DNA of 64,000 nucleotides, taken from positions 8,330 through 72,329 of the IMG/VR virus record IMGVR_UViG_3300010234_000007. One strand, 5' to 3'. Both the position numbers and the translations under genes were made by a program. The notes beneath the pieces are model-generated. The model was not told the DNA's origin. It ran no database searches and saw only the letters and a list, made by a program, of their open reading frames with translations. Origin of the DNA: a virus. Its lineage: Duplodnaviria > Caudoviricetes. The stretch's first letter is position 1; every line of letters starts with the position of its first letter. Positions 2,999 through 64,000 of the stretch are shown here, in pieces.

Positions 2999-3008
2999 GC
3001 CAGACTAC

Positions 3009-3042
3009 GGGGGGAGGCGTCCGCCTTCCCCCGCCTCTTTCT
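3009..3042 (+). terminator. GC-rich hairpin, weak terminator or processing site
   Basis: GGGGGAGGCG-TC-CGCCTTCCCC stem followed by GCCTCTTTCT. Confidence 0.4.
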
Positions 3043-3055
3043 GAAAGGAAACACT

Positions 3056-3940
3056 ATGTCTATCCATGAAAACTGCCTGCTCGTATCTCTTCACGTGAAG
3101 AGCTGGGGCGGGAAACGCACCGACCGCAAGGTCACCAAAACAGTCCATGAGGAGGCCAACGCCCAGCACAAAGCGGGCGTCTACGTGAAGAACCTCGTGG
3201 ACCCCAAGACGAGCGGCCTGTTCGCCGTGCAGGAGATCGCCGCTGCCTCCCGGGCGTGGCATTACGCACACACCGCTCCGTGGGGCGAGCGCGGTGGTGA
3301 CCGTATTGTGACCATCGCAGGGATCAATGCATGGGCAAAGAATATGCGTGGCTTCCGCGACCAGCATCAATCTGCGGTTGAAAATTTCCTCAACAAGTAC
3401 CCCGACGCTATGGCCGAGGCTGAGGTCTGGCTGGGTAAGTTGCACAGTAAGGCCGACTACCCGACCATCGCTGACCTGACGGCCCGGTTCGCCCTGCACG
3501 CTGACTACAAGCCGGTGCCCCACGGGGATGATTTCCGCGCTGACCTGCCGACCGCAGAGCGTGAGGCCATCATCGCAACGGTGGAGGAGGCCAATATCCG
3601 GCGCATCAAGGACGCCATGGATGACACGCTCGACCGCGTCGCGACCCAGTTGGAGCATGTGACTGAGCGCCTGCGTGCGTTCCAGATCACTGGTCCGGGC
3701 TCGCGCAACAAGGGCGTGTTTCATGACACTCTCGTGTCGAACACCTACAACATGCTGCAGGCTGTTGAAGCGCTGAACATCACGGGCGACGCTGAGCTGA
3801 CCCGCCGCGTGTCTGACATGCAGTGGGTGATGCGGGGTATTTCTGCCCAGAACCTGCGTGAAGATCAGGCCACACGTGACACCGTCGCCGCCCATGCGGC
3901 TAAACATGCCACCGCTATCCGTGAGCGGCTGGCAGCTTAG
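3056..3940 (+). CDS. DUF3150-like helical protein
   Basis: N-terminal LLVSLHVKSWGGKRTD and long helical body; lies between AAA and vWA genes. Confidence 0.65.
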   Translation: MSIHENCLLVSLHVKSWGGKRTDRKVTKTVHEEANAQHKAGVYVKNLVDPKTSGLFAVQEIAAASRAWHYAHTAPWGERGGDRIVTIAGINAWAKNMRGFRDQHQSAVENFLNKYPDAMAEAEVWLGKLHSKADYPTIADLTARFALHADYKPVPHGDDFRADLPTAEREAIIATVEEANIRRIKDAMDDTLDRVATQLEHVTERLRAFQITGPGSRNKGVFHDTLVSNTYNMLQAVEALNITGDAELTRRVSDMQWVMRGISAQNLREDQATRDTVAAHAAKHATAIRERLAA

Positions 3941-19833: not shown

Positions 19834-20083
19834 GTACCCTCTCGCGGAAGAAATACCCGAACGCAAACGTAAGAAGAATGCCTATCGCGCCGCCGATCAT
19901 TACTGCCGATCCGGGGCTCGCAATAAACTTCAAGCAAAACGACTTGTCGCCCAAGCATATTTGTGAAAATTCAGCAGACCATGACTGTATCATGATGCCA
20001 ACGAGTGTCCCAATTGAAGAGCCCAAGGTGGCGAATTGTACTTTCCGCCCGGGTCTTTTAGTCGGCTGGTTTCTAAGCATCAC
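19772..20083 (-). CDS. putative holin
   Basis: Two TM segments, basic N-terminus, AAGGAG SD. Confidence 0.55.
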   Translation of the reverse strand: MMLRNQPTKRPGRKVQFATLGSSIGTLVGIMIQSWSAEFSQICLGDKSFCLKFIASPGSAVMIGGAIGILLTFAFGYFFRERVHGHSSEKAESAAQEGSGDGV

Positions 20084-23000
20084 TGTATCTCCTTACGGAT
20101 AGAAGAAACCTGCTTTGTAAGCATGATCTTCATTTTATCTAGCTCGTCAAGTCTTTGGCGCTTTATTGTGGGTTGGATATCACGGGCCACGATTATTCTA
20201 TTGCGCATCTGGTTGATCTTGGAAATCTGTCGCGCTACTTGCTCCAGCGTTTTCGAATACTGGTAGCGCTTCATGTACGTCTTGTTCTGCATCAACTCAT
20301 TGGCGCGCTCAGTATCACCTGACTTGAGCGCCCGGTTGATGGAGGCCTTAGCGCTGCGCACCAGCGTCAGCATCTCATAGAACTTGTCCACGTCCCCGCG
20401 GGGCAGCTCTGATTGCAGGAAGCGCTTGATGACTGGGTACTGCTCGATACGGTATGCCGGGGTGACCTTACCTGAGCCTGCGGACATCAGCTCATGCATG
20501 GCGGTCAGGAAATAGCTGCCTAGCGTGCCTGTGTAACCGCGGAGGGCATGGTCCAGCCTGATGGGTGGGATGCCCAGCTGCTCGCCGATGGCGCGGGATA
20601 GGGCGCTGGTATACTCTGTATGCCGGTCCTTGGTATCCAGTCCCGTCATGAAATACGGCTCGATGGCCCGGCCCTGATAGAAGCTGTAGTTAGCGATGGC
20701 TTCGATGGCAGGGACAATCGCCTGAGGCAGTGGGTTGATGCGCAAGGTCTCCATCGTAGCGCGCAAGAGGGCCCCTCGCAAATCAGAGCCAGTATCTTGC
20801 CCAGAGGCATACGCCATCAGCCGCTCTGGGATCAGCTTGAACAGCACGCCGATTTCAAACGGAATGGGTAGCTTGAACGTGTTCTTGCCGTGCTTGACCA
20901 GCCAGTTGCCGTCCCGCTCATGATCGGGCGCGTTCTTGTATTCGTCCTCGTCCGACATCAGGCTGTAGTACACCATCGTGGACAGCATGAGCAACGCGCC
21001 ACGGGCAATGCCACGTCGCTGTGCCAGCTTTTTGTTTACACCAGAGCCCTTGCCTGTACCGTCGCCCTTGTATGCACGGTAGATGATGTCGAGACCCTGA
21101 AGGCGGGCATTCAGGAATGGGACGAGGGCCGTCATGGTGCGCATCGTTTTCGATGAGCCCTTACGGGAGAAGTTGATAACCTCCAGCGCCTCAAACGCGG
21201 CCTGTGCAGGGTTGCCTGTCTCTTTTAGGGTCGCCTTATACACCGCGTTACGAGTTGCGGCGTCAGAGGCCTCCGTAGCCTTGTTCAGGAGACCCCACGC
21301 ACGGATCAATGGGTTCTTGGAGTAGCTATTTTTGAACGCCTTCGATGCGTTCTTGATATCACCCACGAAGTCATGACCACCGTAGGCACCGGAGCGCTGC
21401 AGGGCTTGGTTGGTCTTGGAGTTGTAGACCGCCTCGACCGCGCCACGTGCGGTGCCTAGGAACGGCGTGAACTTCCTGCCAGTAGTCACCCAAGCAGATA
21501 CGGTATCACGCAGGCCGTTGGCCAGCATAAAGCCCGGATCGCGGGTCACCATCTCACGTAGGAACTGTGACGGCAGTGCTAGAGCGCGCATGAAGCCCGT
21601 CAGATCGGTCGGGGCCATGGCGGTGAGGGAGTCGATCAACAGCGGATCATCCACGACGAAGTGGCGTGTCTTGCCCTTCACACGGATACTCACGTCTGCA
21701 TCGCCCGGCTTCTTCACCTCGTGCGACAGGCCCAGTGTCTTAGCATCCCGGATCGCACGTTGAGCGGCGACGTTCTTCATGCCCATATCGATAGCAGCGC
21801 GGGCGTTCTGTGTGACCAGTTCGACCCAATCGCCCTTGAACGCGGTGGTGCCGCCTTTCAGCTTCTTGGAAGGCTTCACGCCTACAATCCCGCCGAACGC
21901 GCTGACAGGCTTGCCCTTCAGTATGGTGACGGCTTCGCCCTCGGCCTCACGGTAGAATGGCACGTAGTCCTGATGTTCTGTCCACAGCTCCATACCCTTC
22001 TTGTCCAGCACGCCCGTATCGACCATGAACTGCACGATACCGTTATTCCAGCGCTGATACTTCTGACGGACGCCTTCGAACCACTCGTAAGTCTGGCCTA
22101 TAGACAGACCTGTCTGTATTTGCGCTTCAGTGAGGAAGTTTTCCCTCTTCTCTCCTTTCAGGCGTGCGGCGCGTTTTGCAGCTGAGTACGCACCAAACTC
22201 TTTCCACAGGTTCTCTTTGCCGACGCGCTCCATGATCTTGATGAGCCCGCCCAGATTTTCGCCGTTCTCATCTTTCAGATCGACCACTTCCGTGAAGCCG
22301 TTCTTGTAGACGGGGATACCATAGTTGTAGGCAGAGGCGAGGATACCGACTGAGCGCTCAGCGAAGCGTGCGGCACCGATGGCCGAGGTGTCGGCATACA
22401 GGTCACGGTCTGTCTTGGCAGCTTGCTCACCGATCTCAGCCATACGTGCGAACTTATCGAAGAACTTCTGGCGGAAGATCGTCGCGTTGGTGCGTCGGCC
22501 CGGCTTGTGCCGCATGTTCTGTAGGACCACCTGCCCAAGAGTGTGAGGGCCGGAGGTGTACATGTCATCGATAAGCTGCCGCTGGGCATCGGTGGTGTCT
22601 GCGTGGTGATGCCTGAGACGGTAGCGGATGTCAGGGTTGGTCGGAGAGAAGGAGCCGTCGTTCCCGGTGGCGGACTTGATCTGTGTGGGCTCAAACACCA
22701 CCAGCTCATCGATAGTGACTTTGTTACTGTTGATGCTGATGACGCCATCATAGCCACGCTCTGCAAGCCAAGCATTAACATTGTTCGTGAACGTGATGTT
22801 GGGGTTGCCCTCTGTGCCAGCCACTGCTTCGAAGACTTCTGCGCCGAAGTCCTTTCGGAACTGGCGCTTCATTGAATTAAACCCCGGCTCCATACCGCGG
22901 TGGATCATATACGGGTTCTGCATCGAGAGGAAAACCGGCATTACAACTTGAGAGGACTGACTCCCGAAAAACCGCTCTTCCCGGCTGTCCCGCATACGGG

Positions 23001-26000
23001 CATATTCTGAAGCTTCGCTGGTGCGCGGCGTAAAGTAGAACCCCTGACCATACCATCCGCCATCAACTTTTGAAGCCTCTCCGTGTTTAAAGATAGTGAA
23101 GTCTTCTGCTGATCCATGGTAAACGACCATAGGCTTGCCATCAGCATCAACTATCTTGCTATCCTTGAACCACCTACGGAAGGCGGATGTGTTGGGGGCT
23201 TTGATGCCCACGGCGACTGGCTGGCGATTGTGGGTGCGCAGGGAGTAGCGCTCCATTTCCTGCGTATCTTGTGCGGAGAAGTTGCCATGCCACGGATCGT
23301 CTGCCAGCAGCTCAGTCGGGATCACCACAGCTTTCTGGTCAGAGTAGGGGCGCTCAGTAAACTTGATGTAGTCCTGATCTCCGCGCTTCGGGATACTGCC
23401 ATCCTCACGACGGATATGTCGGCCAAAATTAACCCATGCGTTCTGGGCTAGCGTTTCAGCGGCTAGGGCTGGGACAGCTTCCGGCGGCACCATGGATGCA
23501 TGCTCATGGAATGCGTTGTACTCACCGGTCGGCCCGAAGTTTGTGGCATTCTGGGCATGGCCAAAGAAATCATGCACCACACGGAATAGATCATTGGCGA
23601 GCAGATACCGCCCGTCGGAGGTCATAAACTCTGTGGGTGCGAGCATGGGATGATTGATGGGGTCTGAGCCCTCACCATACCCGTTTTCTGTGAGATAGAA
23701 ATACAGATGCTTGTTCTGCGCTAGATCGTCCAGCATCGCCTGTGAGTTAGCGTACGGATCGCCATCGCCGATATATGGCTCGATGCTGATATCGCCCAGA
23801 AGCTTATATTGCTCAACCACAGCCCCGATGAGTGCGTCATACGACGCTTGTACTTCTGCGCTATCCGGGGAGTGTTCCGCGTCTTCCAGATAATCGGCCA
23901 CGCGTTGTAAATACGTAACTGGAGGTTCTTGATGAGCGACAATGCCCGGCCCATACCCGTGCTCCTGACGGTACTGTTCTGCTAAATCAACCGCGACCTG
24001 AACAGGCTCCCGCTTAGATAGCGCGAACCGTTCATTCATGTACGGCCCGATGGATGAGGTGCCGGGCCGTTTACCCTGTGTCAGCTTGTAGCGTAGGTGT
24101 GGGGACCGCTCAGCGGTAGCTGCGTCCGATGTACGTGCGTCGTACACCTCACCGTCTTTGATGACCCGCCCGCTGAAGCCTACCTCCGCGTATGGCTCGC
24201 CTGTGCGCGTGACATCGCTGAGCGTCACCGGGATCATCTCATCGGCTTCAAACAGCCCGCTCAGGTGGTCAGCGTTTTCAGCCCCAGACACACCGTCCAC
24301 AACAAAGTCACCGTTCTCATTCAGCCCACCCGAGATATTGGTTGGGGCTTGGAACAGATCGCGACCAGACTGCAGGTCTTCGAAGTCGTGGTACTGCGGG
24401 CCCTTCCTACCGCCTTCCAGCAGCTGTGAGACGGCACCACGTGGCATGTAGACCCGGCCCTTGGTCCCGGCAGGATTAAGCGGCCAGCTGTGCTTGTTGC
24501 CGCTGTACAGGCTGATGTGATCATAGAAGCGGTTGGCATACACATCATCCGCAAGTCCACCCTCGATGATCTTGGACCACTGCTCCTCGCGTGTCGGGAG
24601 AGCGGCGAGGTCCATATCGAAGGCTTCGGACTGTTCCCACAGTACCGCCACATTGTGGTTGACTTCATTATCGCCAGCGATACCGCCGCCTACGTGCTGG
24701 AAGCCATCGTAGCCGAGTGACCGTAAGCCATCGTGCAGCAGCTCCCAATGCGCGTGGAACTTGGACTGATCTGCGGGAGAGAGCACGTGCTTATCCTCCA
24801 CCGCCAGCGTCATAGCGTTCACGGGCATAGACGCCCACGCTGCGCCTGAGCGGTCGTCGCCATTCGGCGGCACCACATCTAGGCCGAACTCACGCATCAT
24901 CGCAAACGCCTGCTCGAACTCGGCCTGTACTTCCGGGGGTAGCGGCTTCTCTAGGTTCAGCAGACGGATGTTGTCCTTCAGCTTAACCGCCAGCACACTG
25001 GCGCTCTGCATAGCTTCAGGCGTGGAGGGGCGCGCTTGTAAGTAAGACAGCCCCAGCCAGTAATTGTCTGTCAGATAGAAGCCCGGTCCAAACAAATCCA
25101 GCGGATTGGTGAGTTGGACATCCATCTGCTTTGGGTCGGTGAGGGTTCGCCCACCATGGTACATCTGCGCCCCGGCCAGCGAGTCCTTGGGACGGAACTT
25201 GTAGCGTTGTGTGGGCTCAACCGCCTCATCCACCCGCGATACAGCCGGGTGAGCACGGAAGGTGTCTGTGATGTCCTCAACTGTGCGCTGGGCGGGTACA
25301 TCGTCTAATGTGGCCTTTAGCGCGCTGATCTTGGGGCGGAAGGTGTCGGAGAATTTCGGAGCATCTTGTCCAATTCGTCGCCTGTAGAGGGAGTCGAGTC
25401 TTTTTGCGGCGCGGGTGAGGTGGGCCCCAAAAGCTGCTTCAGAAATTCCGCTTCCTTCGGCGCTCGTCGGGTCTGCTCCTTCTCCATCTCGTCGATCATC
25501 TCTAATATCTTTGAGCTGATATCCGCCATCGCTTAGTAGTCTCCTGTTGATTTCTTCGCTAAACAGCAGGTTGAAGTCGGGGACTTCCGTAACCTGCGCT
25601 GCTGTGACATTCTTGTAATCGAACCGCTGGCCAACTTGGCTTTCCCACAACGCCTTCGACCATGACCAGATGGTTTCCTGCACCTCAGCGGGGAGCCAAA
25701 TATCACCCGTGCGCTTGGACAGAATTTGTGCCGCCCGGCGGGTGACGTTGTTGTACGCCAGATAACCACCACTCTTACCACCAATACCACCGTATTCATC
25801 ACGTCCTACGGGTCGGCTGCTGAAGGCGTTCTCTTTGTCGATGGCCGCGTAATTCGCCATCCACGTATCGTTGGTGACTTCCTGCATATCACGGTATAGG
25901 TTCAGGAAGAAGCTGTTGACCTTGGGACCACTGAGGACGATCTGCGTAGGATCATCAGCGCGGAATGAGCGCAACACGTTGTTACCCCACGCCCAGACAT

Positions 26001-29000
26001 CATTCGTATCTGTGGTGTCACTGGTAATCGTGTCCAGCATCATCTTGAAGACCGGGTCGTTCGCCATCTGCACCCGGCGTCCTTCTAAAGAACTGGCCGT
26101 GGGGATAACGGGCTTGGGCCTTCCTGCCGCGATCCACTTAGTCCACAGCTCGATTGCTTGTTGCAGGTTTTCTTCTACCGGTTTCTGGGGGGAAAGAGCT
26201 GCCAAGACAGCCGTGAACCGTGTAGCGTGTTCTGCACCGAACAGATCGATAATCGCCTTGCGGGACTTGACGTACCAGCCGCGCTTGCCGCGACCGGCGT
26301 ATGCTACGGTGGCCATCTCGCTGGCACTTGGCAGATTTGTTAGCGCCTCGACAATATTCCGCGCCATGCGCGTTTTGATCGTGGTGAGTTCTTCGTCGGT
26401 GAACCCAGACAGGATGGGCCTAAACCCACTCACGCGCTCATTAAGTTGCTGGACATGCTTCGTCAGCTTGTATCGCGCCTTCTTGCCCGGCGGCGGGTAC
26501 ATGAGCCCACGCATCTCTTCTTCGAGACTGCGCGCCCCTTCGTAGCTTTCGCGCCGATACTGACGCCGTACATCATTCTCTTCAATGATCGGCCCGGCCA
26601 AAGCCTTGACCCGAGCCCTATCGCCAGCAGCGACCGCCATGGCCAGCTGCACGATGGCGTCCTGCTCTGGCGTGGCTGGTGAGAAGCGCTCTAGAGCATC
26701 AGACAGATCACTCAGCGCCTGCGATGACCAGAAGCCCTGAGATAGCTCCTGATATTCCTCCTGAGAAGCGCCCTTCTTCTGATTGCCCCATGCGTAAACC
26801 CGGCGTGCTTGCTCAGCGACGCGGATCGGCACAGGGTTCGCACCCGTGGCATACTCCTCAAAGAGACGGTTGACGCCTTCCAGTGCCCGCACGAAGCGAG
26901 TCTTCTTGGGCCAGAAGCGCGACGGTGCGTTGGTGGGCTTCCTGACATAGCCACGCTGGATCAGCGGGAAGACGTTACTACGCCATTCCTGAGCGGAGTT
27001 GTTCAGGCTGTAGAAATCTTCTCGCCGCCCCTCTTCCGCGGTGCCGGGCTGTGCGGCGATGATGCCCGGATCAGTGACTGTGATTTCGCTTCCAAAACCA
27101 GCCATCTCCAGCGCTTCTGGCCGGGCAGTCTTGACGGCCCGCACTTCGTTACGGCTACGTGCGCCGAACTCACCACTCTCTACACGCTGCAGGATGTCCT
27201 CAGCGATCACCTTATCGTCCTTCATCACACCGATGAAGTTCTTCAACGCATCGAGAATGCGCTGCATCAGGCTCTTCACCTTAGGCGGCACCTGTAAGAG
27301 CGCGTCCTTGTCCTTCGCCCAGAAGCGGAACAATTCGGCAACAGCCTCCTCGTGCACGTTTTCGACGTACTTCATCGGCTTCACGCCATCCGGCGGGTTT
27401 AGGACATAGCTATTGTATGCCTGCTGCCAGAATGTTACGGGGTCTTGGGGGTTTCCTTCGCTATCAATCTCGCTGCCGGGAACGAAGGTCGTGTACGCAT
27501 ACTGCTTCAGGGAGGTCCATTCGCTATCGGTGAAGGCATCAGCCTCCCGCAGCATATGGATGATTTCATGGTCCAGAGTCTCCAGCATCTCATCGAGCTG
27601 CGCCTCTGGTGCCTTACCAGCCACCACGTCCTTGGCGAGTTGCACGAGCCGGTTGACGGCAGCGCCATCAGCGTTGCCATTCTGGATACTCTCGACCAGC
27701 TTTAGTGTGGTGCCATCTGGGGCGATCTTAGCCAGCCGCCCGCGCAGCTTAGCAACAACCTCAGATGGGATAACGACCTCCGGGGCCGGGACCGGTGCTG
27801 GCTCAGGGACGATGAACTTATTAGTCCGCCCCTTGCGCACCAGCGAGCCCTCTTCCACCAACGCAGCTTGAATTGCTTTCGCGGCTCTGTTCCCTGTTAC
27901 GCCTGTGTGACGCTTAATGGCCCCGATGGTGGTGCCTTCGTGCAGGCGATCCCGCGCGATGTCGAGCTGTTCTTCGGTATACTCACGCGGTATGGCTCGC
28001 GGATCAGCTTCAAACGTCGTGCCGTCCAGCCCGTCCAGCGCGTCTTCCATAGCGCTCAACTGCGAGGCATTCATGCTATTGAGATCGGGGCGACCTGTGA
28101 GGCGTCTGGAGAACTCCGTGAACGCGTCGCTCTCCCAGTTAATATCTTTGCTCTCTGCCTTGACGCGCACACGCTCTGGCGTGATATATTCACGGGTAAG
28201 GGCCTGCTGGTCGAGTAGAGCGCTAACTTTTGCTTCGGAGACGCCTCCACTCCTTAGTTCAGAAGCGGTGTACTGCTCCTTGATCGGCAGGCCCTGATTT
28301 GTCCGGGTGCTGTGCAGGCGTGCGGCTTCAGCGTTGCTCAGTTCATCAGCGGTGAAAACGAACGGCGTTTGGGTTTTACGAGCTTCTTCCAGAAGCGCCT
28401 TTTGCTCTATCCGGCCATCTTCAAGCTTCTTGCTATCTGCCGCCTCTTTCTTGCGCAGAAGCTCCACAGCACTCCCGATGGACTCCATCGTGGCAGAGAA
28501 CTCTTCAGCCTCGTCCTTTTTAGCGAATGCTTGTCCGACACGTGCGTCTTCCGGGCCAACAACCCAGTACCCCTTCTTGCCTTTCTTTACTGTGTACGGG
28601 CCGATGGGGATGGTGTCTGAGAAGTCCGTGGCGAGGCGCTTCGCGTATGTATCAAGGTCTTCGCCCACCTTACGCGGGGTAACCGCCACCGCCGGTGCTT
28701 CCTGCCCAATGCTAAGCGTGGAAGACGATGCGCCTTGAGCCCCCGGCTCTTGGGGCGTTTCAGTGGATTGATTGTAGGCTTCACGGGTGCTCGTTAACCC
28801 CTCTCTGATACGCTTGGTGTAATTGCGATCACGCCTACGGCCTGCCGAAGCGGCCATAGCTTCCATGACACCGCGCATAAGTCCACCAGCGCCTGCGCCG
28901 TAACGGAACTCATCGTAGAGAGATTGCCCGACCTTCAGGTCAGGGTTGTAGATATTCTTCTCAATCATATCCTGCATTACGCTGGCGACGGCTTCCTGCA

Positions 29001-29787
29001 AGCCTTCAGCGCCACCGGACAGGACAGAACGCGTTAGTATTCCGAAGATACGGTTCTTGATTTTTGTGGGGATGTCTTTCTTCGCGGCACCGAGGAGCCT
29101 CTTCAGCGGGGCCATCGCAACGCGCACCGGGAAGACTTCCGTGAGGCCGACCGCGCCGCCCCATAAGATCGCGCTGTTCTGGTCAGACTGGCTGACCGTA
29201 TGCCCAGCTTCGAGGCGGGCGAGAACACGATCTACTTGTTCACCTGCGCCCACAGTCGAGGCGAGGCCCCACTGCGACAGGTTTAATGCCTTGGCGACAA
29301 CCGGGGCCTTGGTGGCAAGGCTGGCAGCACCTACACCGGGCACCATGAAGGTTAACATAGAGCCACCAGCGTCGCCGAACCGGGCGGCATCTGTGGTGGC
29401 ATAGCCCTTCTTAGCGGCGAGCCAGCCCTTGTTGAAGACATGGTCCTTCGCGTCTTGCGTCCACTCTACGACAGCGCTGTCCTTAACGCCGGGAACGCCC
29501 TCAATACCAACCGCATCGGCACCGGCTTTAACCAGCCCGGCACCACCTTCTATCGCGGTGAGAGCTGTCCCAGCTAAGCCACGACCGAGCCCCTTAAAGA
29601 ACTCCGCCCCGCCCTGCCAATAAGAGAAGTCTTCGTCAGAGACCTCACTCTCGGGACGGTTTGGACGCCCAGACAGGGCATCGCCGATATCGGCTAAGAC
29701 AGACTGTGAGGGCTTCTTGACTGTAAGCGCCGGTGCCTTGCTGGCATACCCGCCGGTTATTTCATCAAGGAATTTATCTTCAGCCAC
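20080..29787 (-). CDS. giant polyvalent internal virion/ejection protein (zincin peptidase, HhH-like module, two ADP-ribosyltransferase-like domains, LPD38-like C-terminus)
   Basis: 3235 aa; HEIIH...HEE; WY..AALSPQ..GPKVNSF..VTNDTW; YHG..GPGFYLT..GYDG; YHG..GQGFYFT..GYDG..NPDIRY; LPIPFEIG..IPER..NP.P..I.P..E...NY. Confidence 0.85.
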   Translation of the reverse strand: MAEDKFLDEITGGYASKAPALTVKKPSQSVLADIGDALSGRPNRPESEVSDEDFSYWQGGAEFFKGLGRGLAGTALTAIEGGAGLVKAGADAVGIEGVPGVKDSAVVEWTQDAKDHVFNKGWLAAKKGYATTDAARFGDAGGSMLTFMVPGVGAASLATKAPVVAKALNLSQWGLASTVGAGEQVDRVLARLEAGHTVSQSDQNSAILWGGAVGLTEVFPVRVAMAPLKRLLGAAKKDIPTKIKNRIFGILTRSVLSGGAEGLQEAVASVMQDMIEKNIYNPDLKVGQSLYDEFRYGAGAGGLMRGVMEAMAASAGRRRDRNYTKRIREGLTSTREAYNQSTETPQEPGAQGASSSTLSIGQEAPAVAVTPRKVGEDLDTYAKRLATDFSDTIPIGPYTVKKGKKGYWVVGPEDARVGQAFAKKDEAEEFSATMESIGSAVELLRKKEAADSKKLEDGRIEQKALLEEARKTQTPFVFTADELSNAEAARLHSTRTNQGLPIKEQYTASELRSGGVSEAKVSALLDQQALTREYITPERVRVKAESKDINWESDAFTEFSRRLTGRPDLNSMNASQLSAMEDALDGLDGTTFEADPRAIPREYTEEQLDIARDRLHEGTTIGAIKRHTGVTGNRAAKAIQAALVEEGSLVRKGRTNKFIVPEPAPVPAPEVVIPSEVVAKLRGRLAKIAPDGTTLKLVESIQNGNADGAAVNRLVQLAKDVVAGKAPEAQLDEMLETLDHEIIHMLREADAFTDSEWTSLKQYAYTTFVPGSEIDSEGNPQDPVTFWQQAYNSYVLNPPDGVKPMKYVENVHEEAVAELFRFWAKDKDALLQVPPKVKSLMQRILDALKNFIGVMKDDKVIAEDILQRVESGEFGARSRNEVRAVKTARPEALEMAGFGSEITVTDPGIIAAQPGTAEEGRREDFYSLNNSAQEWRSNVFPLIQRGYVRKPTNAPSRFWPKKTRFVRALEGVNRLFEEYATGANPVPIRVAEQARRVYAWGNQKKGASQEEYQELSQGFWSSQALSDLSDALERFSPATPEQDAIVQLAMAVAAGDRARVKALAGPIIEENDVRRQYRRESYEGARSLEEEMRGLMYPPPGKKARYKLTKHVQQLNERVSGFRPILSGFTDEELTTIKTRMARNIVEALTNLPSASEMATVAYAGRGKRGWYVKSRKAIIDLFGAEHATRFTAVLAALSPQKPVEENLQQAIELWTKWIAAGRPKPVIPTASSLEGRRVQMANDPVFKMMLDTITSDTTDTNDVWAWGNNVLRSFRADDPTQIVLSGPKVNSFFLNLYRDMQEVTNDTWMANYAAIDKENAFSSRPVGRDEYGGIGGKSGGYLAYNNVTRRAAQILSKRTGDIWLPAEVQETIWSWSKALWESQVGQRFDYKNVTAAQVTEVPDFNLLFSEEINRRLLSDGGYQLKDIRDDRRDGEGADPTSAEGSGISEAAFGAHLTRAAKRLDSLYRRRIGQDAPKFSDTFRPKISALKATLDDVPAQRTVEDITDTFRAHPAVSRVDEAVEPTQRYKFRPKDSLAGAQMYHGGRTLTDPKQMDVQLTNPLDLFGPGFYLTDNYWLGLSYLQARPSTPEAMQSASVLAVKLKDNIRLLNLEKPLPPEVQAEFEQAFAMMREFGLDVVPPNGDDRSGAAWASMPVNAMTLAVEDKHVLSPADQSKFHAHWELLHDGLRSLGYDGFQHVGGGIAGDNEVNHNVAVLWEQSEAFDMDLAALPTREEQWSKIIEGGLADDVYANRFYDHISLYSGNKHSWPLNPAGTKGRVYMPRGAVSQLLEGGRKGPQYHDFEDLQSGRDLFQAPTNISGGLNENGDFVVDGVSGAENADHLSGLFEADEMIPVTLSDVTRTGEPYAEVGFSGRVIKDGEVYDARTSDAATAERSPHLRYKLTQGKRPGTSSIGPYMNERFALSKREPVQVAVDLAEQYRQEHGYGPGIVAHQEPPVTYLQRVADYLEDAEHSPDSAEVQASYDALIGAVVEQYKLLGDISIEPYIGDGDPYANSQAMLDDLAQNKHLYFYLTENGYGEGSDPINHPMLAPTEFMTSDGRYLLANDLFRVVHDFFGHAQNATNFGPTGEYNAFHEHASMVPPEAVPALAAETLAQNAWVNFGRHIRREDGSIPKRGDQDYIKFTERPYSDQKAVVIPTELLADDPWHGNFSAQDTQEMERYSLRTHNRQPVAVGIKAPNTSAFRRWFKDSKIVDADGKPMVVYHGSAEDFTIFKHGEASKVDGGWYGQGFYFTPRTSEASEYARMRDSREERFFGSQSSQVVMPVFLSMQNPYMIHRGMEPGFNSMKRQFRKDFGAEVFEAVAGTEGNPNITFTNNVNAWLAERGYDGVISINSNKVTIDELVVFEPTQIKSATGNDGSFSPTNPDIRYRLRHHHADTTDAQRQLIDDMYTSGPHTLGQVVLQNMRHKPGRRTNATIFRQKFFDKFARMAEIGEQAAKTDRDLYADTSAIGAARFAERSVGILASAYNYGIPVYKNGFTEVVDLKDENGENLGGLIKIMERVGKENLWKEFGAYSAAKRAARLKGEKRENFLTEAQIQTGLSIGQTYEWFEGVRQKYQRWNNGIVQFMVDTGVLDKKGMELWTEHQDYVPFYREAEGEAVTILKGKPVSAFGGIVGVKPSKKLKGGTTAFKGDWVELVTQNARAAIDMGMKNVAAQRAIRDAKTLGLSHEVKKPGDADVSIRVKGKTRHFVVDDPLLIDSLTAMAPTDLTGFMRALALPSQFLREMVTRDPGFMLANGLRDTVSAWVTTGRKFTPFLGTARGAVEAVYNSKTNQALQRSGAYGGHDFVGDIKNASKAFKNSYSKNPLIRAWGLLNKATEASDAATRNAVYKATLKETGNPAQAAFEALEVINFSRKGSSKTMRTMTALVPFLNARLQGLDIIYRAYKGDGTGKGSGVNKKLAQRRGIARGALLMLSTMVYYSLMSDEDEYKNAPDHERDGNWLVKHGKNTFKLPIPFEIGVLFKLIPERLMAYASGQDTGSDLRGALLRATMETLRINPLPQAIVPAIEAIANYSFYQGRAIEPYFMTGLDTKDRHTEYTSALSRAIGEQLGIPPIRLDHALRGYTGTLGSYFLTAMHELMSAGSGKVTPAYRIEQYPVIKRFLQSELPRGDVDKFYEMLTLVRSAKASINRALKSGDTERANELMQNKTYMKRYQYSKTLEQVARQISKINQMRNRIIVARDIQPTIKRQRLDELDKMKIMLTKQVSSIRKEIQ

Positions 29788-32150: not shown

Positions 32151-32483
32151 TTAATCGCTCTTGTCTTGGCCGTGGCCGCAGCCACCGCATCGCCCACGTT
32201 GTTCTTCTGATCCGCAGTATTCACATGTGTAGTGACTGACGAGTGCTTCGAGGCGCTTCATGTCTCGTGCATGCCGCGCATCTATGGCGTGCGGTCTCAA
32301 GGCGGCGTATTGCTGAACTCTGCGGGCGTTTTGAGAGTCGTGAGAGTCGTAAGCAAAGCTAATACCCTCACCGATAGAGATCGGCAGCACTGACAGATAC
32401 GCCCCTGAGCCCTTACCCATCGATTGAAGCAGAACCTTCATCGCCCAAAAAGGGAGCAATACCGATGTTGCCCGATCCTCCAT
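32151..32483 (-). CDS. small protein with C-terminal Zn ribbon
   Basis: CEYC...CGGC; true start may be MGKGSG near 32420. Confidence 0.55.
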   Translation of the reverse strand: MEDRATSVLLPFWAMKVLLQSMGKGSGAYLSVLPISIGEGISFAYDSHDSQNARRVQQYAALRPHAIDARHARDMKRLEALVSHYTCEYCGSEEQRGRCGGCGHGQDKSD

Positions 32484-32550
32484 TTCCGATCAAACCGCCC
32501 CATCCTTCGATGAAACCGTTATCCGTCTCGATAAAATCAAACTCACGCAT
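32413..32550 (-). CDS. 45-aa Gly-rich leader ORF downstream of the C4-like RNA
   Basis: CAGGAGAG SD; MREFDFIETDNGFIEGWGGLIGNGGSGNIG...; read by hand. Confidence 0.45.
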   Translation of the reverse strand: MREFDFIETDNGFIEGWGGLIGNGGSGNIGIAPFLGDEGSASIDG

Positions 32551-32570
32551 ACTGCTCTCCTGTGTTAGCG

Positions 32571-32710
32571 GATCACAGGCCGGGCGCTACTCCGGCTAGG
32601 GTTTACGCCCCCAGTTCATCGCCGTCGCTTCTCTGGGTTAGTTGCCCTCACTATACGTCCGAACACTAAAGTCGGCACGTGGTGTGTCTGCTTTCCACAC
32701 CGCTGTGATC
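32571..32710 (-). ncRNA. C4-antisense-like cloverleaf RNA, copy 1
   Basis: Closing stem GAUCACAG/CUGUGAUC; hairpin GGUGUG-GAAAGCAGA-CACACC; hairpin GCCGG-AGUAGCGC-CCGGC; both conserved blocks recur at 63893-64000. Confidence 0.75.
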
Positions 32711-59525: not shown

Positions 59526-59699
59526 TTAGTCAAGCCTTTTCTTCCTTAACATATGTATGGGACTTTCAGTAGACAAGAAAGGCAAGCGCTCTAAACGCCC
59601 CACCTTTGTCAACCAAAACACGGCTTGGCGGTCGTGGCGAGGGTTCAAACTCCCCCACACAAACCCACCGTCTTTGCTTCTATTTAAAACGAGCCTCAT
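59526..59699 (-). CDS. G-x-L family small protein (57 aa)
   Basis: MRLVLNRSKD...AVFWLTKVGRLER...IHMLRKK; ATGA-coupled; read by hand. Confidence 0.6.
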   Translation of the reverse strand: MRLVLNRSKDGGFVWGSLNPRHDRQAVFWLTKVGRLERLPFLSTESPIHMLRKKRLD

Positions 59700-59902
59700 G
59701 TATCCCTATCTCGGCGCAAGAAGATCATATCATTTCTTAGCTCCACGAAGAACCCTGAGGAGCTTCGTTCGTGTAATTTACCGTTACGTAAAAGTACGAA
59801 TGGTGTGTGCTCCCAATACAGCCGAGACGGGTCTAATTTTTCGTTAACCGCCACGTTGGAGCCTGACGGAACGAGGCCAATGATGCTGACCAAACTGCTC
59901 AT
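59696..59902 (-). CDS. G-x-L family small protein (68 aa)
   Basis: MSSLVSII...PFVLLRNGKLHE...DMIFLRR; ATGA-coupled to the LexA-like gene. Confidence 0.6.
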   Translation of the reverse strand: MSSLVSIIGLVPSGSNVAVNEKLDPSRLYWEHTPFVLLRNGKLHERSSSGFFVELRNDMIFLRRDRDT

Positions 59903-60102
59903 ATGATCTGGATCGAACGGGCGCGGTAACGCTCTTTCTTGATCTTGCCCTTTGTCACCAGCTGCGCCACCACCGCGTGGGCTTGGGCGCGGGACTTGAT
60001 GCCAAGCCCGTCTGCGATATCTGCCAAAGAAGGCGGGTAGCTGTGATCTGCGAGGAACGTGCCGATGAAATCCAAGCACGCCTGTTGCCGGGTTGTAAGC
60101 AT
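59899..60102 (-). CDS. LexA-type DNA-binding domain protein without peptidase domain
   Basis: LTTRQQACLDFI.......YPPS..DIA..LG.KS.......V..L..KG.I.......RSI.I. Confidence 0.88.
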   Translation of the reverse strand: MLTTRQQACLDFIGTFLADHSYPPSLADIADGLGIKSRAQAHAVVAQLVTKGKIKKERYRARSIQII

Positions 60103-60123
60103 GTAGCGGTCTCCTTTTCTACG

Positions 60124-60152
60124 AGGCTAATACGGAGAGCGACAGATGTCAA
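60124..60152 (-). promoter_or_regulatory. sigma70-type promoter for the LexA-like operon
   Basis: TTGACA-17 bp-TAGCCT; AAGGAG SD downstream. Confidence 0.65.
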
Positions 60153-60522: not shown

Positions 60523-60588
60523 AAGGTAGCGGGAAAGGCGGTGAATGTCAATTTTTTTATTGACAGATGTTACAGACATCCCCATACT
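60523..60588. promoter_or_regulatory. back-to-back sigma70 promoters
   Basis: Minus strand TTGACA-17-TACCTT (60551-60523); plus strand TTGACA-17-CATACT (60560-60588); GATGT-N5-ACATC palindrome in the plus-strand spacer. Confidence 0.75.
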
Positions 60589-60614
60589 ACCACCATCAAC
60601 AACGCGAGGTTCTT

Positions 60615-60869
60615 ATGTCTGAAAAGCGAGTAAATCTGGCCGTCTGGGGTGAGGGCAACTACGACAAGGATGCGATCATCATCAATGGCCGCGAAGATGG
60701 CGAAGGCAACATCATCATCTATGTCGTGAACCGTGACGGCATGCGGGACGGCGACGGGGCTGATATTTTCCGGCTCAACCGGGACAGCTCCGTGGACCGC
60801 TTCAAGACGCTGAACCCCAAATACGGGTTCGACCAAGAAGACAACGGCATGATCGTGCTCGACAACTAA
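60615..60869 (+). CDS. small beta-rich protein, possible distant G-x-L family member
   Basis: GAGGT SD; VNLAVW...DIFRLNRDSSVDRF. Confidence 0.7.
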   Translation: MSEKRVNLAVWGEGNYDKDAIIINGREDGEGNIIIYVVNRDGMRDGDGADIFRLNRDSSVDRFKTLNPKYGFDQEDNGMIVLDN

Positions 60870-60890
60870 GCGCGCGGTCAGAACTCAACG

Positions 60891-60918
60891 GGGAGGCCTT
60901 GCGCCTCCCTATTTTTTT
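60891..60918 (+). terminator. rho-independent terminator
   Basis: GGGAGGC-CTTGC-GCCTCCC-TATTTTTTT. Confidence 0.85.
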
Positions 60919-60933
60919 GCCTAAATTCTGAGC

Positions 60934-61155
60934 ATGAGCAGCTTAGATAAACAGATCGGTGGGCGGCATTACGCTGATCTACCCATCCAGCCCATGACAT
61001 ACATCGTGAAGAACGGCATCGGATACGCCGAGGGCTGTGTCATCAAATATGTCTCGCGCTGGCAGCACAAAGGCGGTGTGGAGGACCTGAAGAAGGCCCG
61101 GCACATCCTAGAGCTTCTTATCGAGCTTACAGAGGGTGGGGTGGGTGATCAATAG
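60934..61155 (+). CDS. DUF3310 family protein
   Basis: QIGGRHY..L.IQP..YI..N...Y.EG.VIKY..R...KGG.EDL.KA. Confidence 0.88.
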   Translation: MSSLDKQIGGRHYADLPIQPMTYIVKNGIGYAEGCVIKYVSRWQHKGGVEDLKKARHILELLIELTEGGVGDQ

Positions 61156-61308
61156 CGTGACGGTGCGTAAGTGCGACGGATAAAGTACGAGCTTGCCGTT
61201 TTCTTGCAAGGCGGCTTTAGCACGGATGCTACCTCCCCAATCCGATGTTACCATTATGGTATGTGCCAGCCCGGAAATCAGCTTAGGGACTAAACTTACC
61301 TCCTCCAT
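61108..61308 (-). CDS. G-x-L family small protein N
   Basis: AKAALQENGKLVL. Confidence 0.6.
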   Translation of the reverse strand: MEEVSLVPKLISGLAHTIMVTSDWGGSIRAKAALQENGKLVLYPSHLRTVTLLITHPTLCKLDKKL

Positions 61309-61466
61309 CGGTATTCCCCACGTGGTGCACGCCCAGTGAACACCATCAAATTTCCACGCTGCCCTAAGCGCAGGTGCGGGTGGCTGTCCACCCACACAGC
61401 GACGTAACTCCCTCCGGGACCACCCTTGTTGCCATGGGTTATGTAAGCGTAATTCAGCTTATTCAT
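61296..61466 (-). CDS. G-x-L family small protein M (56 aa)
   Basis: MNKLNYAYIT...HLRLGQRGNLMV...EYRWRR; GAGGAGG SD; not in track. Confidence 0.65.
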   Translation of the reverse strand: MNKLNYAYITHGNKGGPGGSYVAVWVDSHPHLRLGQRGNLMVFTGRAPRGEYRWRR

Positions 61467-61666
61467 GCGTCCTCCTCAGGGAATGGGGGGCCACACGTAA
61501 AGCGCCTCAGGAACTGTAAATCTTCCGGCGCTGTCTGTCCCCGGCGTGGTAAATTCAATCTAGCGTAGGACTCAAGATACGCGTATGCGTTATTGTTGAT
61601 CTCCACTCCGATCCACGGGTGTTCGTGCGCGTCGCCCGAAAAAATGTACAAAGTTACCTTACGCAT
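61463..61666 (-). CDS. G-x-L family small protein L
   Basis: MRKVTLYIF...AYLESYARLNL...EDLQFLRR. Confidence 0.7.
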   Translation of the reverse strand: MRKVTLYIFSGDAHEHPWIGVEINNNAYAYLESYARLNLPRRGQTAPEDLQFLRRFTCGPPFPEEDA

Positions 61667-61829
61667 CAGGACGTTTCCTTGTGAATTGCAAGTCCTCGCG
61701 GTCTGTATTGGTGTGGGTTGGGAGAAACAACCTACCATAGGACTCAAGATACACAACGGATTCGTCCATAGATTCCACGGCGATCCACTTGGGGTCAGAC
61801 TGAGATAGGTACAAGTTCACCTTACGCAT
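61659..61829 (-). CDS. G-x-L family small protein K (56 aa)
   Basis: MRKVNLYLS...VYLESYGRLFL...EDLQFTRK; not in track. Confidence 0.7.
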   Translation of the reverse strand: MRKVNLYLSQSDPKWIAVESMDESVVYLESYGRLFLPTHTNTDREDLQFTRKRPDA

Positions 61830-62001
61830 CACGATGCCTCGCGATTATCAAAGGGCGATCTATAGGCACGCGTGGGATAGCAGTAATCTGCAGCTTGCCT
61901 GTCGGGCGCAAAAACACGTTAGGGACATCATACGCGCAGATCAGCGTAAGCCCGGGACTCCATTGGGCGCGCTGCAGCTTCATTTCAATCTTCATGCTCA
62001 T
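61822..62001 (-). CDS. G-x-L family small protein J
   Basis: NVFLRPTGKLQI...LIIARH. Confidence 0.65.
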   Translation of the reverse strand: MSMKIEMKLQRAQWSPGLTLICAYDVPNVFLRPTGKLQITAIPRVPIDRPLIIARHRDA

Positions 62002-62162
62002 TTCACCCGCCTTAACCTGAGATCGCACGGATTTGCGGGGACGGCGTAGCGCCTCAAGCGGCCATCAGCTTTAATGTAAATAGTCACAACACCCTTGCGA
62101 TTGATGTACACATCGTCTGGCGGGGCTCTGCCTAGTATCGCATACTCGTAACTACTTGTCAT
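61998..62162 (-). CDS. G-x-L family small protein I (54 aa)
   Basis: MTSSYEYAIL...TIYIKADGRLRR...DLRLRR; not in track. Confidence 0.65.
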   Translation of the reverse strand: MTSSYEYAILGRAPPDDVYINRKGVVTIYIKADGRLRRYAVPANPCDLRLRRVK

Positions 62163-62328
62163 GGAGCCGCCTCACGAATTGGTACACCACTTCACCATCG
62201 CGAAAGGCGCTAAGCCACAGCGTGCCATGAGAGAACAGCATGACGGGCGGGTTCAACCGGCCCGGCGTCCGCAAGAGAACATTCCCACGTGCGTTGCGGT
62301 GTAGTTTTATGATTTCGGTCTTTAACAT
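62152..62328 (-). CDS. G-x-L family small protein H
   Basis: PVMLFSHGTLWL...YQFVRR. Confidence 0.65.
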   Translation of the reverse strand: MLKTEIIKLHRNARGNVLLRTPGRLNPPVMLFSHGTLWLSAFRDGEVVYQFVRRLHDK

Positions 62329-62356
62329 ACGTTCTATTATGGCAGAATATCCAACG

Positions 62357-62755
62357 TTACGCAAGCAGGACGAAATTACGCACCGGTATCAGGCACACCA
62401 CATCCTTGTCCAGCGGGTCCCCGCGATCACGACGGTGTAACACAGCCGTATCATACATCGTTTCCACCAACACTACCCCCAGCGCATCCTCCCATTGAAC
62501 TGCCAAAAAAGCCGCGGTGGGCTCATCCATCAAGGTGGCGATTTTGGCGCGATCCACCGCGAGGGTCGGGTACTTCTCACGCGCGTTATACCGCCGTTTC
62601 ACCTCAGCCACCGCGACACGCACACCCTCACGCCAGAACTCCACATCATATGGGGACTCAGTCGAGGTGATGCAGGCCTCAGCACCTATATGGACGCCGA
62701 GTCTTGAAGCTATACGCGCCTCGTTAAGACGGTCAGCGGCTGTTTCGTACAGCAT
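62357..62755 (-). CDS. PD-(D/E)XK nuclease-like protein inside the array
   Basis: YDVEF.....AVAEVKRR......YPT; RRDRGDP.D. Confidence 0.65.
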   Translation of the reverse strand: MLYETAADRLNEARIASRLGVHIGAEACITSTESPYDVEFWREGVRVAVAEVKRRYNAREKYPTLAVDRAKIATLMDEPTAAFLAVQWEDALGVVLVETMYDTAVLHRRDRGDPLDKDVVCLIPVRNFVLLA

Positions 62756-62918
62756 TGCGCTTTAGGCGTAGCGAGGAGGTGGTATGGAGATAGGGGCGGT
62801 ATACCCGCAGCGACCCGTTACTGCATACTATATATGCATACAGAGCATCGTCTGATATCAGACAGAGCGAGGCCCGCGTATCTGTTATATACAGCCTCAC
62901 GGTGATGTGTGTGCTCAT
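62733..62918 (-). CDS. G-x-L family small protein G
   Basis: YAYIVCSNGSLRV...SLRLKR. Confidence 0.65.
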   Translation of the reverse strand: MSTHITVRLYITDTRASLCLISDDALYAYIVCSNGSLRVYRPYLHTTSSLRLKRNAVRNSR

Positions 62919-63076
62919 TTTTGGTAACGCATTAGACGGATGGGCTCATTATATGTGTAGGTGAGAACGCGAAGCGCCCCTCGGTCTGTGAGATATGCAG
63001 TGGGGCGTATTGTCCCGTACCACGCCAGACCGACGTATTTCAGGATGGCAAGCCTGCATACATGGAATTTGTTCAT
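62915..63076 (-). CDS. G-x-L family small protein F (53 aa)
   Basis: MNKFHVCRL...TAYLTDRGALRV...IRLMRY; not in track. Confidence 0.65.
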   Translation of the reverse strand: MNKFHVCRLAILKYVGLAWYGTIRPTAYLTDRGALRVLTYTYNEPIRLMRYQK

Positions 63077-63147
63077 ACTCGTATCACGATATGTTTGCGC
63101 CCCATCTGAAAAGCAGAGATGCTGACATTGCGCAGTTGGGTGGTCAT
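63073..63147 (-). pseudogene. 24-aa ORF, possibly a truncated family member
   Basis: MTTQLRNVSISAFQMGRKHIVIRV; ATGA-coupled on both sides; has only the N-terminal beta strands. Confidence 0.35.
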
Positions 63148-63326
63148 GTCTGCGCTGGCTTATGGGTCATCCTCATAGGCGGGTCGTCGGGATGGCGTTG
63201 CGCTTTCCTGATGCCGCCTGAGGAATACAAATACACGAGCGGTATTTCGTTGGAGCCCTCCAAAGCGATGAAGGTGTAGTCCGGGCCGCTCACTAGACAC
63301 AGGTTAGTCATAAGATACTCAATCAT
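63144..63326 (-). CDS. G-x-L family small protein D
   Basis: NLCLV...LVYLYSSGGIR. Confidence 0.65.
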   Translation of the reverse strand: MIEYLMTNLCLVSGPDYTFIALEGSNEIPLVYLYSSGGIRKAQRHPDDPPMRMTHKPAQT

Positions 63327-63508
63327 AGCCGCTTCCAGCACGAAGTCACCGCAAGGCGGCGCTTTAGGTGCGTGGGGCCGGGCGGGAAGGGCACCGAGGT
63401 TCTCGTCAACCGCCCGGAGGGATGCAACATCGCGAGGATGTCGCCCTGCACGACAGACAACCCGATAATTCCAACGCTGCCGATGCGGAATATACGGAGG
63501 CCGGTCAT
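63323..63508 (-). CDS. G-x-L family small protein C
   Basis: LAMLHPSGRLTR...HLKRR. Confidence 0.65.
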   Translation of the reverse strand: MTGLRIFRIGSVGIIGLSVVQGDILAMLHPSGRLTRTSVPFPPGPTHLKRRLAVTSCWKRL

Positions 63509-63690
63509 CGTGGAAGGCCTGTGGGTAGTACTTGAATGGCGCGGGTGATGGTGAACTCGCTGTTAGGGGGAACCTCACCCAGCCTCAACGTCCCCACGGG
63601 GGTTAAAGCCGCGATGGCATACTCGCGCTCAATACGTAAACTCACTAGCTCACTGTCAATGATGTGGCAGAGGTTGAGCGCTGTAGTCAT
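63505..63690 (-). CDS. G-x-L family small protein B
   Basis: NLCHI...IAALTPVGTLRL...EFTITR. Confidence 0.7.
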   Translation of the reverse strand: MTTALNLCHIIDSELVSLRIEREYAIAALTPVGTLRLGEVPPNSEFTITRAIQVLPTGLPR

Positions 63691-63866
63691 CGTGGGGGGT
63701 GTACTTCAAAGGTGCGGCTGAACACAAACTCGGTGGAGGGTCTGGTAGCTCGCAATCTTAATTTACCGTTGGCGCGCAAGATCATCAGAGCTACCTTAAT
63801 GCCCGTGCGCACACTCACCGTCCCGCGGCGGGGGACATGGCACAGGTGGATATCCATGGGGTTCAT
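63687..63866 (-). CDS. G-x-L family small protein A
   Basis: AGGAG SD; HLCHV...LMILRANGKLRL...EFVFSR. Confidence 0.7.
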   Translation of the reverse strand: MNPMDIHLCHVPRRGTVSVRTGIKVALMILRANGKLRLRATRPSTEFVFSRTFEVHPPR

Positions 63867-63885
63867 CCGCATACTCCTATAGTTG

Positions 63886-64000
63886 GGGTGAGGGCCGGGC
63901 GCTACTCCGGCTGGTGACGGGCATTTGGGAAGGGCCTGCCTAGAATTGTCTGGGGCATCCCGTCGAGCCTTCACTCTGCGTGTCTGCTTTCCACGCCGCC
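63886..64000 (-). ncRNA. C4-antisense-like cloverleaf RNA, copy 2 (5' end cut by the window edge)
   Basis: GCGUG-GAAAGCAGA-CACGC and GCCGG-AGUAGCGC-CCGGC hairpins; internal GACGGG/CCCGUC arm. Confidence 0.72.

Follow-up and report, generated by a model that had tools for sequence, protein, structure and literature searches.

A stretch of 64,000 nucleotides (nt) of DNA of an uncultured marine phage (Caudoviricetes), referred to below as the window, comprises bases 8330-72329 of the 72,329-bp IMG/VR virus record IMGVR_UViG_3300010234_000007 (L005, rated complete). Near its right end the minus strand carries a tandem array of 13 small open reading frames (ORFs), labeled A to D and F to N, together with the gene of a phage endonuclease (Table 1). 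The initial annotation of the window had described 13 minus-strand ORFs of 53-67 amino acids (aa) across 61108-63872, nearly all joined by overlapping stop and start codons. All 13 were found at these coordinates. Six junctions within the window are ATGA overlaps, a seventh (U2>U1) lies outside it, and the other junctions are mostly overlaps of 8-13 nt. Coupled ORFs mostly lack a ribosome-binding site. The nuclease gene shares 23 nt with G and is separated from H by 28 nt, dividing the array into six members (A-G) and seven members (H-N). Genes called in public protein sets include A, B, D, J, K and L as well as four upstream members.

Once the repeated ends of the record are taken as a single copy, the minus strand begins with four small ORFs (genome 4240-3488) and terS (3429-2872). 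A non-coding stretch of about 390 nt, which includes a promoter-like site, then leads to a leader of 130 nt and to A to N. Beyond N follow two convergent plus-strand genes, a 117-aa ORF, a gene for a LexA-type helix-turn-helix (HTH) protein, two small ORFs, terL, the portal gene, a Cpn10-like gene and the capsid gene. The array is thus placed between the two terminase genes, terS and terL, in or close to a terminal repeat of 2.5 kb, and the family as a whole (about 19 copies) occupies approximately 5% of the 70-kb genome. According to TerL, portal and capsid, the phage belongs with marine and freshwater podovirus-like phages that have SU10-type portals; TerL is about 50% identical to those of phage 023Pt_psg01, DSL-LC04, pelagiphages HTVC027P and HTVC023P, and Planktothrix phage Pag-Yong1.

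The two ends of the record form an exact direct repeat of 2,473 bp, and its left copy (genome 1-2473) therefore holds a second copy of A to K and most of L. The repeat starts within ORF L and ends 5 nt into the closing stem of the leader. Because these edges cut an ORF and a stem, respecting no features, the repeat may reflect overlapping assembly of a genome that is circular or permuted, and not the physical ends. From a seawater DNA run with a small share of this phage five read-length contigs were recovered, none of them inside the array.

Table 1. Features of the array and its surroundings. Positions are those of the window unless marked as genome positions; member coordinates assume the most likely start codons. 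Rank, leave-one-out rank (see text); pI, isoelectric point.
Feature	Position	Strand	Remarks
Right copy of the 2,473-bp direct terminal repeat	61528-64000 (genome 69857-72329)	.	contains A to K and most of L
Structured 5' leader RNA, 3' part	63873-64000 (full leader, genome 2478-2346)	-	precedes ORF A
A	63687-63872	-	61 aa; pI 12; first gene; own AGGAG ribosome-binding site; rank 1
B	63505-63690	-	61 aa; ATGA overlap with A; rank 1
C	63323-63508	-	61 aa; ATGA overlap with B; rank 7
D	63144-63326	-	60 aa; ATGA overlap with C; weak by profile, rank 47; called gene P0001
F	62915-63076	-	53 aa; preceded by a 67-nt gap after D; rank 2
G	62733-62918	-	61 aa; ATGA overlap with F; rank 1
Phage PD-(D/E)xK endonuclease, not a member	62357-62755	-	132 aa; Pfam PF24579, E 5.4e-19, 69 bits (cut-off 25)
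H	62152-62328	-	58 aa from ATG, 70 aa from an upstream TTG; rank 53
I	61998-62162	-	54 aa; rank 2
J	61822-62001	-	59 aa; ATGA overlap with I; rank 64; called gene P0010
K	61659-61829	-	56 aa; recent duplicate of L; rank 1
L	61463-61666	-	67 aa; contains the terminal-repeat edge at 61528; rank 3
M	61296-61466	-	56 aa; ATGA overlap with L; weak by profile, rank 179
N	61108-61308	-	66 aa; last array gene, converges on the plus-strand DUF3310 gene; rank 15
Extra member	59696-59902	-	68 aa; directly after the LexA-type HTH gene
Extra member	59526-59699	-	57 aa; directly before terL; recurrent best outside match in leave-one-out, E 4e-4 to 0.3

Coding potential of the array

The tiling of the array is far denser than expected by chance. 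ORFs of at least 50 aa (the 13 members and the nuclease gene) cover 97.6% of the minus strand in 61108-63872, compared with 46 +/- 12% in second-order Markov shuffles (maximum of 84% in 2000) and 64% on the plus strand. Codon usage scores highest in the annotated frame, among all six, for approximately 16 of 18 members, and the GC content of third codon positions exceeds that of second positions (GC3 > GC2), as in the long genes of the same phage. The mean codon score of the family (0.04) falls between the means of 90 stop-free shadow ORFs inside real genes (-0.26, standard deviation (SD) 0.22) and of true-gene segments (0.36); such an intermediate score is the usual appearance of fast-evolving accessory genes. 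Amino-acid composition is distinctive too, with 10.7% Arg, 12.2% Leu, raised His and Cys, and lowered Ala, Asp and Gln.

Only two pairs, K/L and A/B, are alignable, and in both the third codon positions are the most diverged. For K/L the identity at positions 1, 2 and 3 is 0.66, 0.64 and 0.43, respectively, and the ratio of nonsynonymous to synonymous substitution rates (dN/dS) is 0.26; for A/B the ratio is 0.52. The core Gly is encoded by GGT, GGG, GGC or GGA and the core Leu by TTA, TTG, CTT, CTG, CTC or CTA, and therefore conservation is at the protein and not at the DNA level. Apart from the start of K and L, no DNA-level repeats were found in the array.

It might be argued that the ORFs are non-functional, being either chance frames or decayed pieces of one former long repeat-protein gene. 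Composition and codon score midway between true genes and shadow ORFs would fit this explanation, as would the low confidence of B in the ESM Atlas (a predicted local distance difference test value, pLDDT, of 0.39), the insignificance of most pairwise similarities and the lack of homologues in the databases searched. However, none of the 2000 shuffles reached the observed tiling, a start codon falls exactly on the preceding stop seven times, the motif keeps its position while its codons vary, K and L differ more at third than at first and second positions, and the leave-one-out ranks presented below point the same way. Moreover, decay would be expected to scatter frameshifts and stops at random, whereas each unit of 53-69 codons is intact and has its own start; in view of these intact units and the regular ATG-on-stop junctions, we reject a decayed single gene. 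Taken together, we regard non-functional ORFs as very improbable. Judged by tiling and codon pattern, the array ORFs are real genes under protein-level constraint, and there is a strong case that they make up a genuine translated family of paralogues.

One scaffold without detectable relatives

The relationship between members is mostly invisible to direct comparison. Pairwise searches linked only A with B (E 5e-6) and K with L (E 3e-10), and an iterative hidden Markov model (HMM) seeded with A and B did not spread within the genome past a borderline first upstream member (E 0.024). We used a leave-one-out scheme for 17 members, in which a profile was built from 16 of them and the held-out one was ranked among some 1,400 pieces from the six frames of the genome. 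Nine members (A, B, G, K, U1, F, I, L and C) ranked seventh or better, U1 being first like A, B, G and K; seven took ranks 15-179 and one upstream member failed (rank 532). Three independently built sub-alignments compared by hhalign gave P values of 3e-4, 0.014 and 0.038, against 0.23-0.64 for reversed controls. The alignments show a constant order of elements. Two strand-like segments at the N terminus come first; a third segment, hydrophobic throughout, leads into a Gly turn and a fourth segment, and a loop containing Pro precedes the last segment, which has the pattern hydrophobic-x-hydrophobic-x-Arg. In all members the G-x-L core begins at residue 26-36. By these measures the family is real, with about ten members proven and the rest members by position, length and motif. 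A comparison of the N-terminal hairpin with the core hairpin gave a mean score only about 1.9 SD above shuffles, and we draw no claim of internal duplication from it.

The family appears to total about 19 members of 53-69 residues, comprising the 13 of the array, the two preceding terL and a further four that lie shortly beyond the window end, upstream of terS (genome 4240-3488). This number falls in the range of 15-20 given by the initial annotation. That annotation had also pointed to satellites of the array, of which the one at 59.5-59.9 kb corresponds to the two members before terL; at 17.6-18.3 and 49.1-49.9 kb the motif is seen by eye, but profile E-values of 2.7-8 are not significant. 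Elsewhere in the window, a 45-aa ORF (32413-32550, minus strand) that follows a second copy of the leader has a similar hairpin (hydrophobic / Asp-Asn-Gly / hydrophobic); it has no C-terminal motif and is not significant as a family member.

Two members, A and K, were modeled as monomers with AlphaFold2 using the family as the alignment. Both models are all-beta. That of A (pLDDT 67.8) has strands at residues 8-13, 18-23, 27-32 and 38-43, whereas that of K (pLDDT 70.6) has a poorly formed fourth strand; the strands of the two fall at matching alignment positions. The models are weak; they agree in beta-strand content only and lead to no known fold. Foldseek found nothing at E <= 0.001 in PDB and BFVD, and a feature search of the ESM Atlas returned only unnamed small hypothetical clusters. 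With VIA-align, about half of the top 50 chains for the model of A are Sm/LSm proteins (for Lsm4, 48 residues at 2.4 A), all at Z of 4.4 or lower, while the best for the model of K are ribosomal protein S16 (bS16) and OspA, at Z of 3.4 or lower. Profile ranks, sub-alignment P values and predicted strand content agree with the earlier description of a diverged paralogue family on one scaffold, here all-beta, that keeps length and pattern and varies in the rest. The conserved positions are probably the structural ones, and the others, charge included, seem to vary freely: pI ranges from 5.5 to 12, with 13 of the 19 members above 9 and Arg-rich at their C-terminal ends, and six acidic or neutral.

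Consistent with the initial statement that no named family could be recognized, searches returned essentially the family itself. With the family profile as query, a word-indexed search across 5.8 billion proteins matched solely genes of the same contig, as did, among small proteins, an exhaustive HMMER search of 1.84 billion representatives. When 18 members were searched singly, Pfam gave only four unrelated single matches at E <= 10 (E 0.055 or worse) and PHROGs v4 only three single matches at E <= 1 (E 0.08 or worse). A nucleotide search of phage records left the array unmatched; the sole match (70% over 131 nt) was at the neighboring DUF3310 gene. Relatives of the phage were gathered via TerL (50-77% identity), TerS and the nuclease gene. 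None of nine relative loci (TerL 50-62%, TerS about 43%), including the terS-terL slot of DSL-LC04, contains a family member; other small ORFs are present in the terS-terL slot of the relatives. The sequence of the closest relative (77% TerL identity) begins only 725 nt before terL. As far as these comparisons reach, the family is an orphan and lineage-specific, absent from all relatives and databases searched.

The only non-self matches, among the 1.84 billion proteins and PDB, are multi-blade propellers: DUF5122/delta-60, RCC1, the designed 8-blade 'Bagel' and PLL lectins. A blade of the PQQ/BamB-like 'Bagel' designs (8prj/8prs), of DUF5122 delta-60 proteins, of PLL lectins or of propellers assembled as oligomers from fragments (PMC6805158) is a four-strand meander of 40-60 residues, with a strand / Asx-Gly turn / strand core and the pattern hydrophobic-x-hydrophobic-x3-G-x-L. 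The matches cover this strand-turn-strand core alone, 18-28 residues at 5-7 bits per repeat, and their E-values are low because the scores of identical repeats are summed. No whole-blade profile match was found for propeller blade repeats (PQQ-like, DUF5122, WD40, RCC1), and none at Pfam E <= 10. By profile, then, the resemblance is a likeness of motif and not evidence of membership.

These matches nevertheless raise the question of whether the products could be subunits of ring assemblies, each gene supplying one unit. The ring would be a beta-propeller divided into its single blades or a hetero-oligomer of Sm/LSm type. In size and number of strands the units suit one propeller blade, the only outside matches are propellers, the model of A lists mainly Sm/LSm chains, 13 of 19 members are basic, and ATGA coupling would give equal amounts of each unit. 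The split into 6 + 7 around the nuclease gene could even mean that A-G and H-N each close one toroid, with stop/start coupling setting equal stoichiometry, a version to which we attach still less weight. On the other hand, the propeller scores are of the summed kind just described, neither a Pfam repeat family nor LSM matches any of the 18 members at E <= 10, the structural scores are low and the model of K lists differently from that of A. Natural propellers are nearly always single chains. In experiments, isolated WD40 blades were unfolded, and attempts at hetero-oligomeric propellers did not succeed (PMC6805158). We therefore consider ring assemblies unlikely.

A further possibility is that the products are small basic nucleic-acid binders. 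They would be either RNA chaperones or regulators, like the early LSm-like proteins of T4, or internal proteins packaged with DNA, the latter being proposed because the genes lie between two terminase genes. The prevalence of members with pI >9 and Arg-rich ends, the weak resemblance of the models to Sm/LSm proteins and S16, and the two members that share orientation and coupling with the LexA-HTH and terL genes are all in line with such a role. There is also a published precedent: the early LSm-like proteins GoF, MotB.1 and Frd.2 of Tevenvirinae (PMC12152347) are small early proteins, likewise without outside homologues, predicted to form a bent five-strand sheet and possibly having a role with RNA. 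They differ, however, in being 119-141 aa long, single-copy and equipped with extra domains; hhalign detected no profile similarity of the array family to T4 GoF and MotB.1 (P 0.71 and 0.81), and the match to their fold is weak (Z 4.4 or lower) and confined to one of the two models. Furthermore, six members are acidic or neutral, and GC-rich, fast-evolving ORFs reach a high Arg content by composition alone. A role of either kind seems improbable to about the same degree as a ring.

Possible role of the array

We favor, at a probability of roughly 0.4, the explanation that the products are a diversified set of small binders for early host takeover or counter-defence, each with its own host target. 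It is suggested by conservation limited to the scaffold, variable charge, a variable accessory slot at or in the terminal repeat and a host-type promoter. Some 19 tandem genes encode all-beta mini-proteins of 53-69 residues on one scaffold of four or five strands, with a buried third strand, a Gly turn and the C-terminal hydrophobic-x-hydrophobic-x-Arg strand. The 13 array members and the nuclease gene make up one tightly packed polycistronic unit, just downstream of the sigma70-type promoter match and the structured leader, with translation mostly coupled through the overlapping stop and start codons. Under the present proposal host RNA polymerase would transcribe the array early in infection, and each mini-protein would be aimed at a different host component, in takeover or counter-defence.

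A number of observations weigh against a repertoire of early binders. Two members belong to the LexA-HTH-terL unit and four are co-oriented upstream of terS, so not all need be early. Coupled translation is no less suited to fixed stoichiometry than to independent binders. Eight members are weak by profile, and both amino-acid make-up and codon score lie between those of real genes and chance ORFs. Finally, promoter-like matches of this quality (9/12) are no more numerous than in shuffles, and the terminal repeat, with its edges inside ORF L and the leader stem, is possibly an assembly overlap.

As arrays of diverged copies, the genes may be likened to the terminal multigene families, or 'genomic accordions', of large DNA viruses. 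The nearest precedent for a set of small binders is SPO1's host-takeover module (PMC6873191), in which about 20 small genes are clustered at or in the terminal repeat of the genome. In both cases the genes form operons behind host-type promoters, look dispensable and mostly lack homologues. The small-gene cluster in the terminal redundancy of SPO1 may have its counterpart in the location of A to L in the exact 2,473-bp end repeat, with the caveat of a possible assembly overlap. The SPO1 genes, in contrast, are mutually unrelated and have strong individual promoters and ribosome-binding sites, whereas the genes of the present array are nearly all paralogues of one all-beta scaffold and mostly translationally coupled.

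Irrespective of its role, the family is new, orphan, all-beta and unusually large for a 70-kb genome: 19 copies in a podovirus-like phage, 13 of them in one operon, with units of 53-69 residues that are small enough to be synthesized singly or as a set. The array also illustrates how much real coding sequence is missed or left unconnected by gene callers and databases, as the similarity of its members becomes visible only through profiles and array layout. If the products are a binder repertoire, they would provide a small scaffold of natural origin and could lead to new host targets, or to activities against defence, in marine bacteria. A ring assembly would instead bear on the evolution of repeat toroids; no natural hetero-oligomeric toroid of such kind would have preceded it among viruses, and it would exemplify, in a living system, the 'single blade' stage that has been proposed in the evolution of propellers.

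Leader RNA, promoter and neighboring genes

The leader upstream of ORF A extends beyond the window end, where its first 5 nt, the promoter (genome 2514-2486) and terS (2872-3429) are located. The promoter candidate, a sigma70-like TTGACT-17-TACTAT site, ends 7 nt before the 130-nt leader and matches the consensus at 9 of 12 positions. The two ends of the leader, GGTGAGG and CCTCACC, can pair, and compensatory changes are present in a second copy of it (window 32565-32705). In general form the motif consists of two hairpins, the 5' one with the loop GAAAGCAGA, separated by a spacer that varies from about 30 to 140 nt. At least 119 viral (IMG/VR) contigs contain the 20-nt sequence of the 3' hairpin without change. 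The flanks are complete in 113 instances, and 81 of these share the GAAAGCA core in the loop of the 5' hairpin as well, with compensatory variants in the stem. A read-length contig from a seawater run shows a third spacing variant of the motif.

The initial annotation had taken this leader for a C4-like RNA that controls the array. Neither part holds. Both the leader and the P1/P7 C4 antisense RNA (RF01695) are short structured RNAs near the start of a phage operon, but Rfam cmscan reported no match on the window at the gathering threshold and none on 5.5 kb with a limit of E <= 1; when the limit was E <= 10, on 201 nt, the sole match was a chance Yfr1 on the other strand. C4 is thus ruled out, with no match at any threshold tried. 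As for control, no family member was found within 3 kb downstream of the motif in 82 instances scanned, and the downstream genes differ among contigs. Because the motif is widespread and the genes downstream are unrelated, the leader is not a dedicated controller of the array; by its distribution it is a widespread, unnamed phage RNA motif outside Rfam.

The DNA that separates terS from the promoter contains three minus-strand copies of GGGTCCCAT (genome positions 2665, 2602 and 2539), spaced exactly 63 nt apart and each followed by a TATA-rich hexamer. They might serve as promoters in tandem, as operators or as terminase recognition repeats adjoining the repeat boundary.

At the other end of the array, a small plus-strand unit (60567-61155), consisting of a 100-aa ORF and the DUF3310 gene, converges on N. 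It has a promoter match (TTGACA-17-CATACT) and a terminator-like hairpin at 60890-60910, and the match of its DUF3310 region noted above is to Bordetella phage BPP-1. The LexA-type gene shortly upstream of terL (59902-60126, minus strand) encodes a 75-aa winged-helix protein. A LexA_DNA_bind gene stands directly 5' of terL in one group of relatives with about 62% TerL identity (the P0046 contigs, including L006); relatives L007 and L008 have none directly upstream of terL, and in the present phage two family members intervene. Farther away, a 3,235-aa virion-type protein (20080-29787, minus strand) matches only PHROGs of unknown function, chiefly through its last 800 residues.

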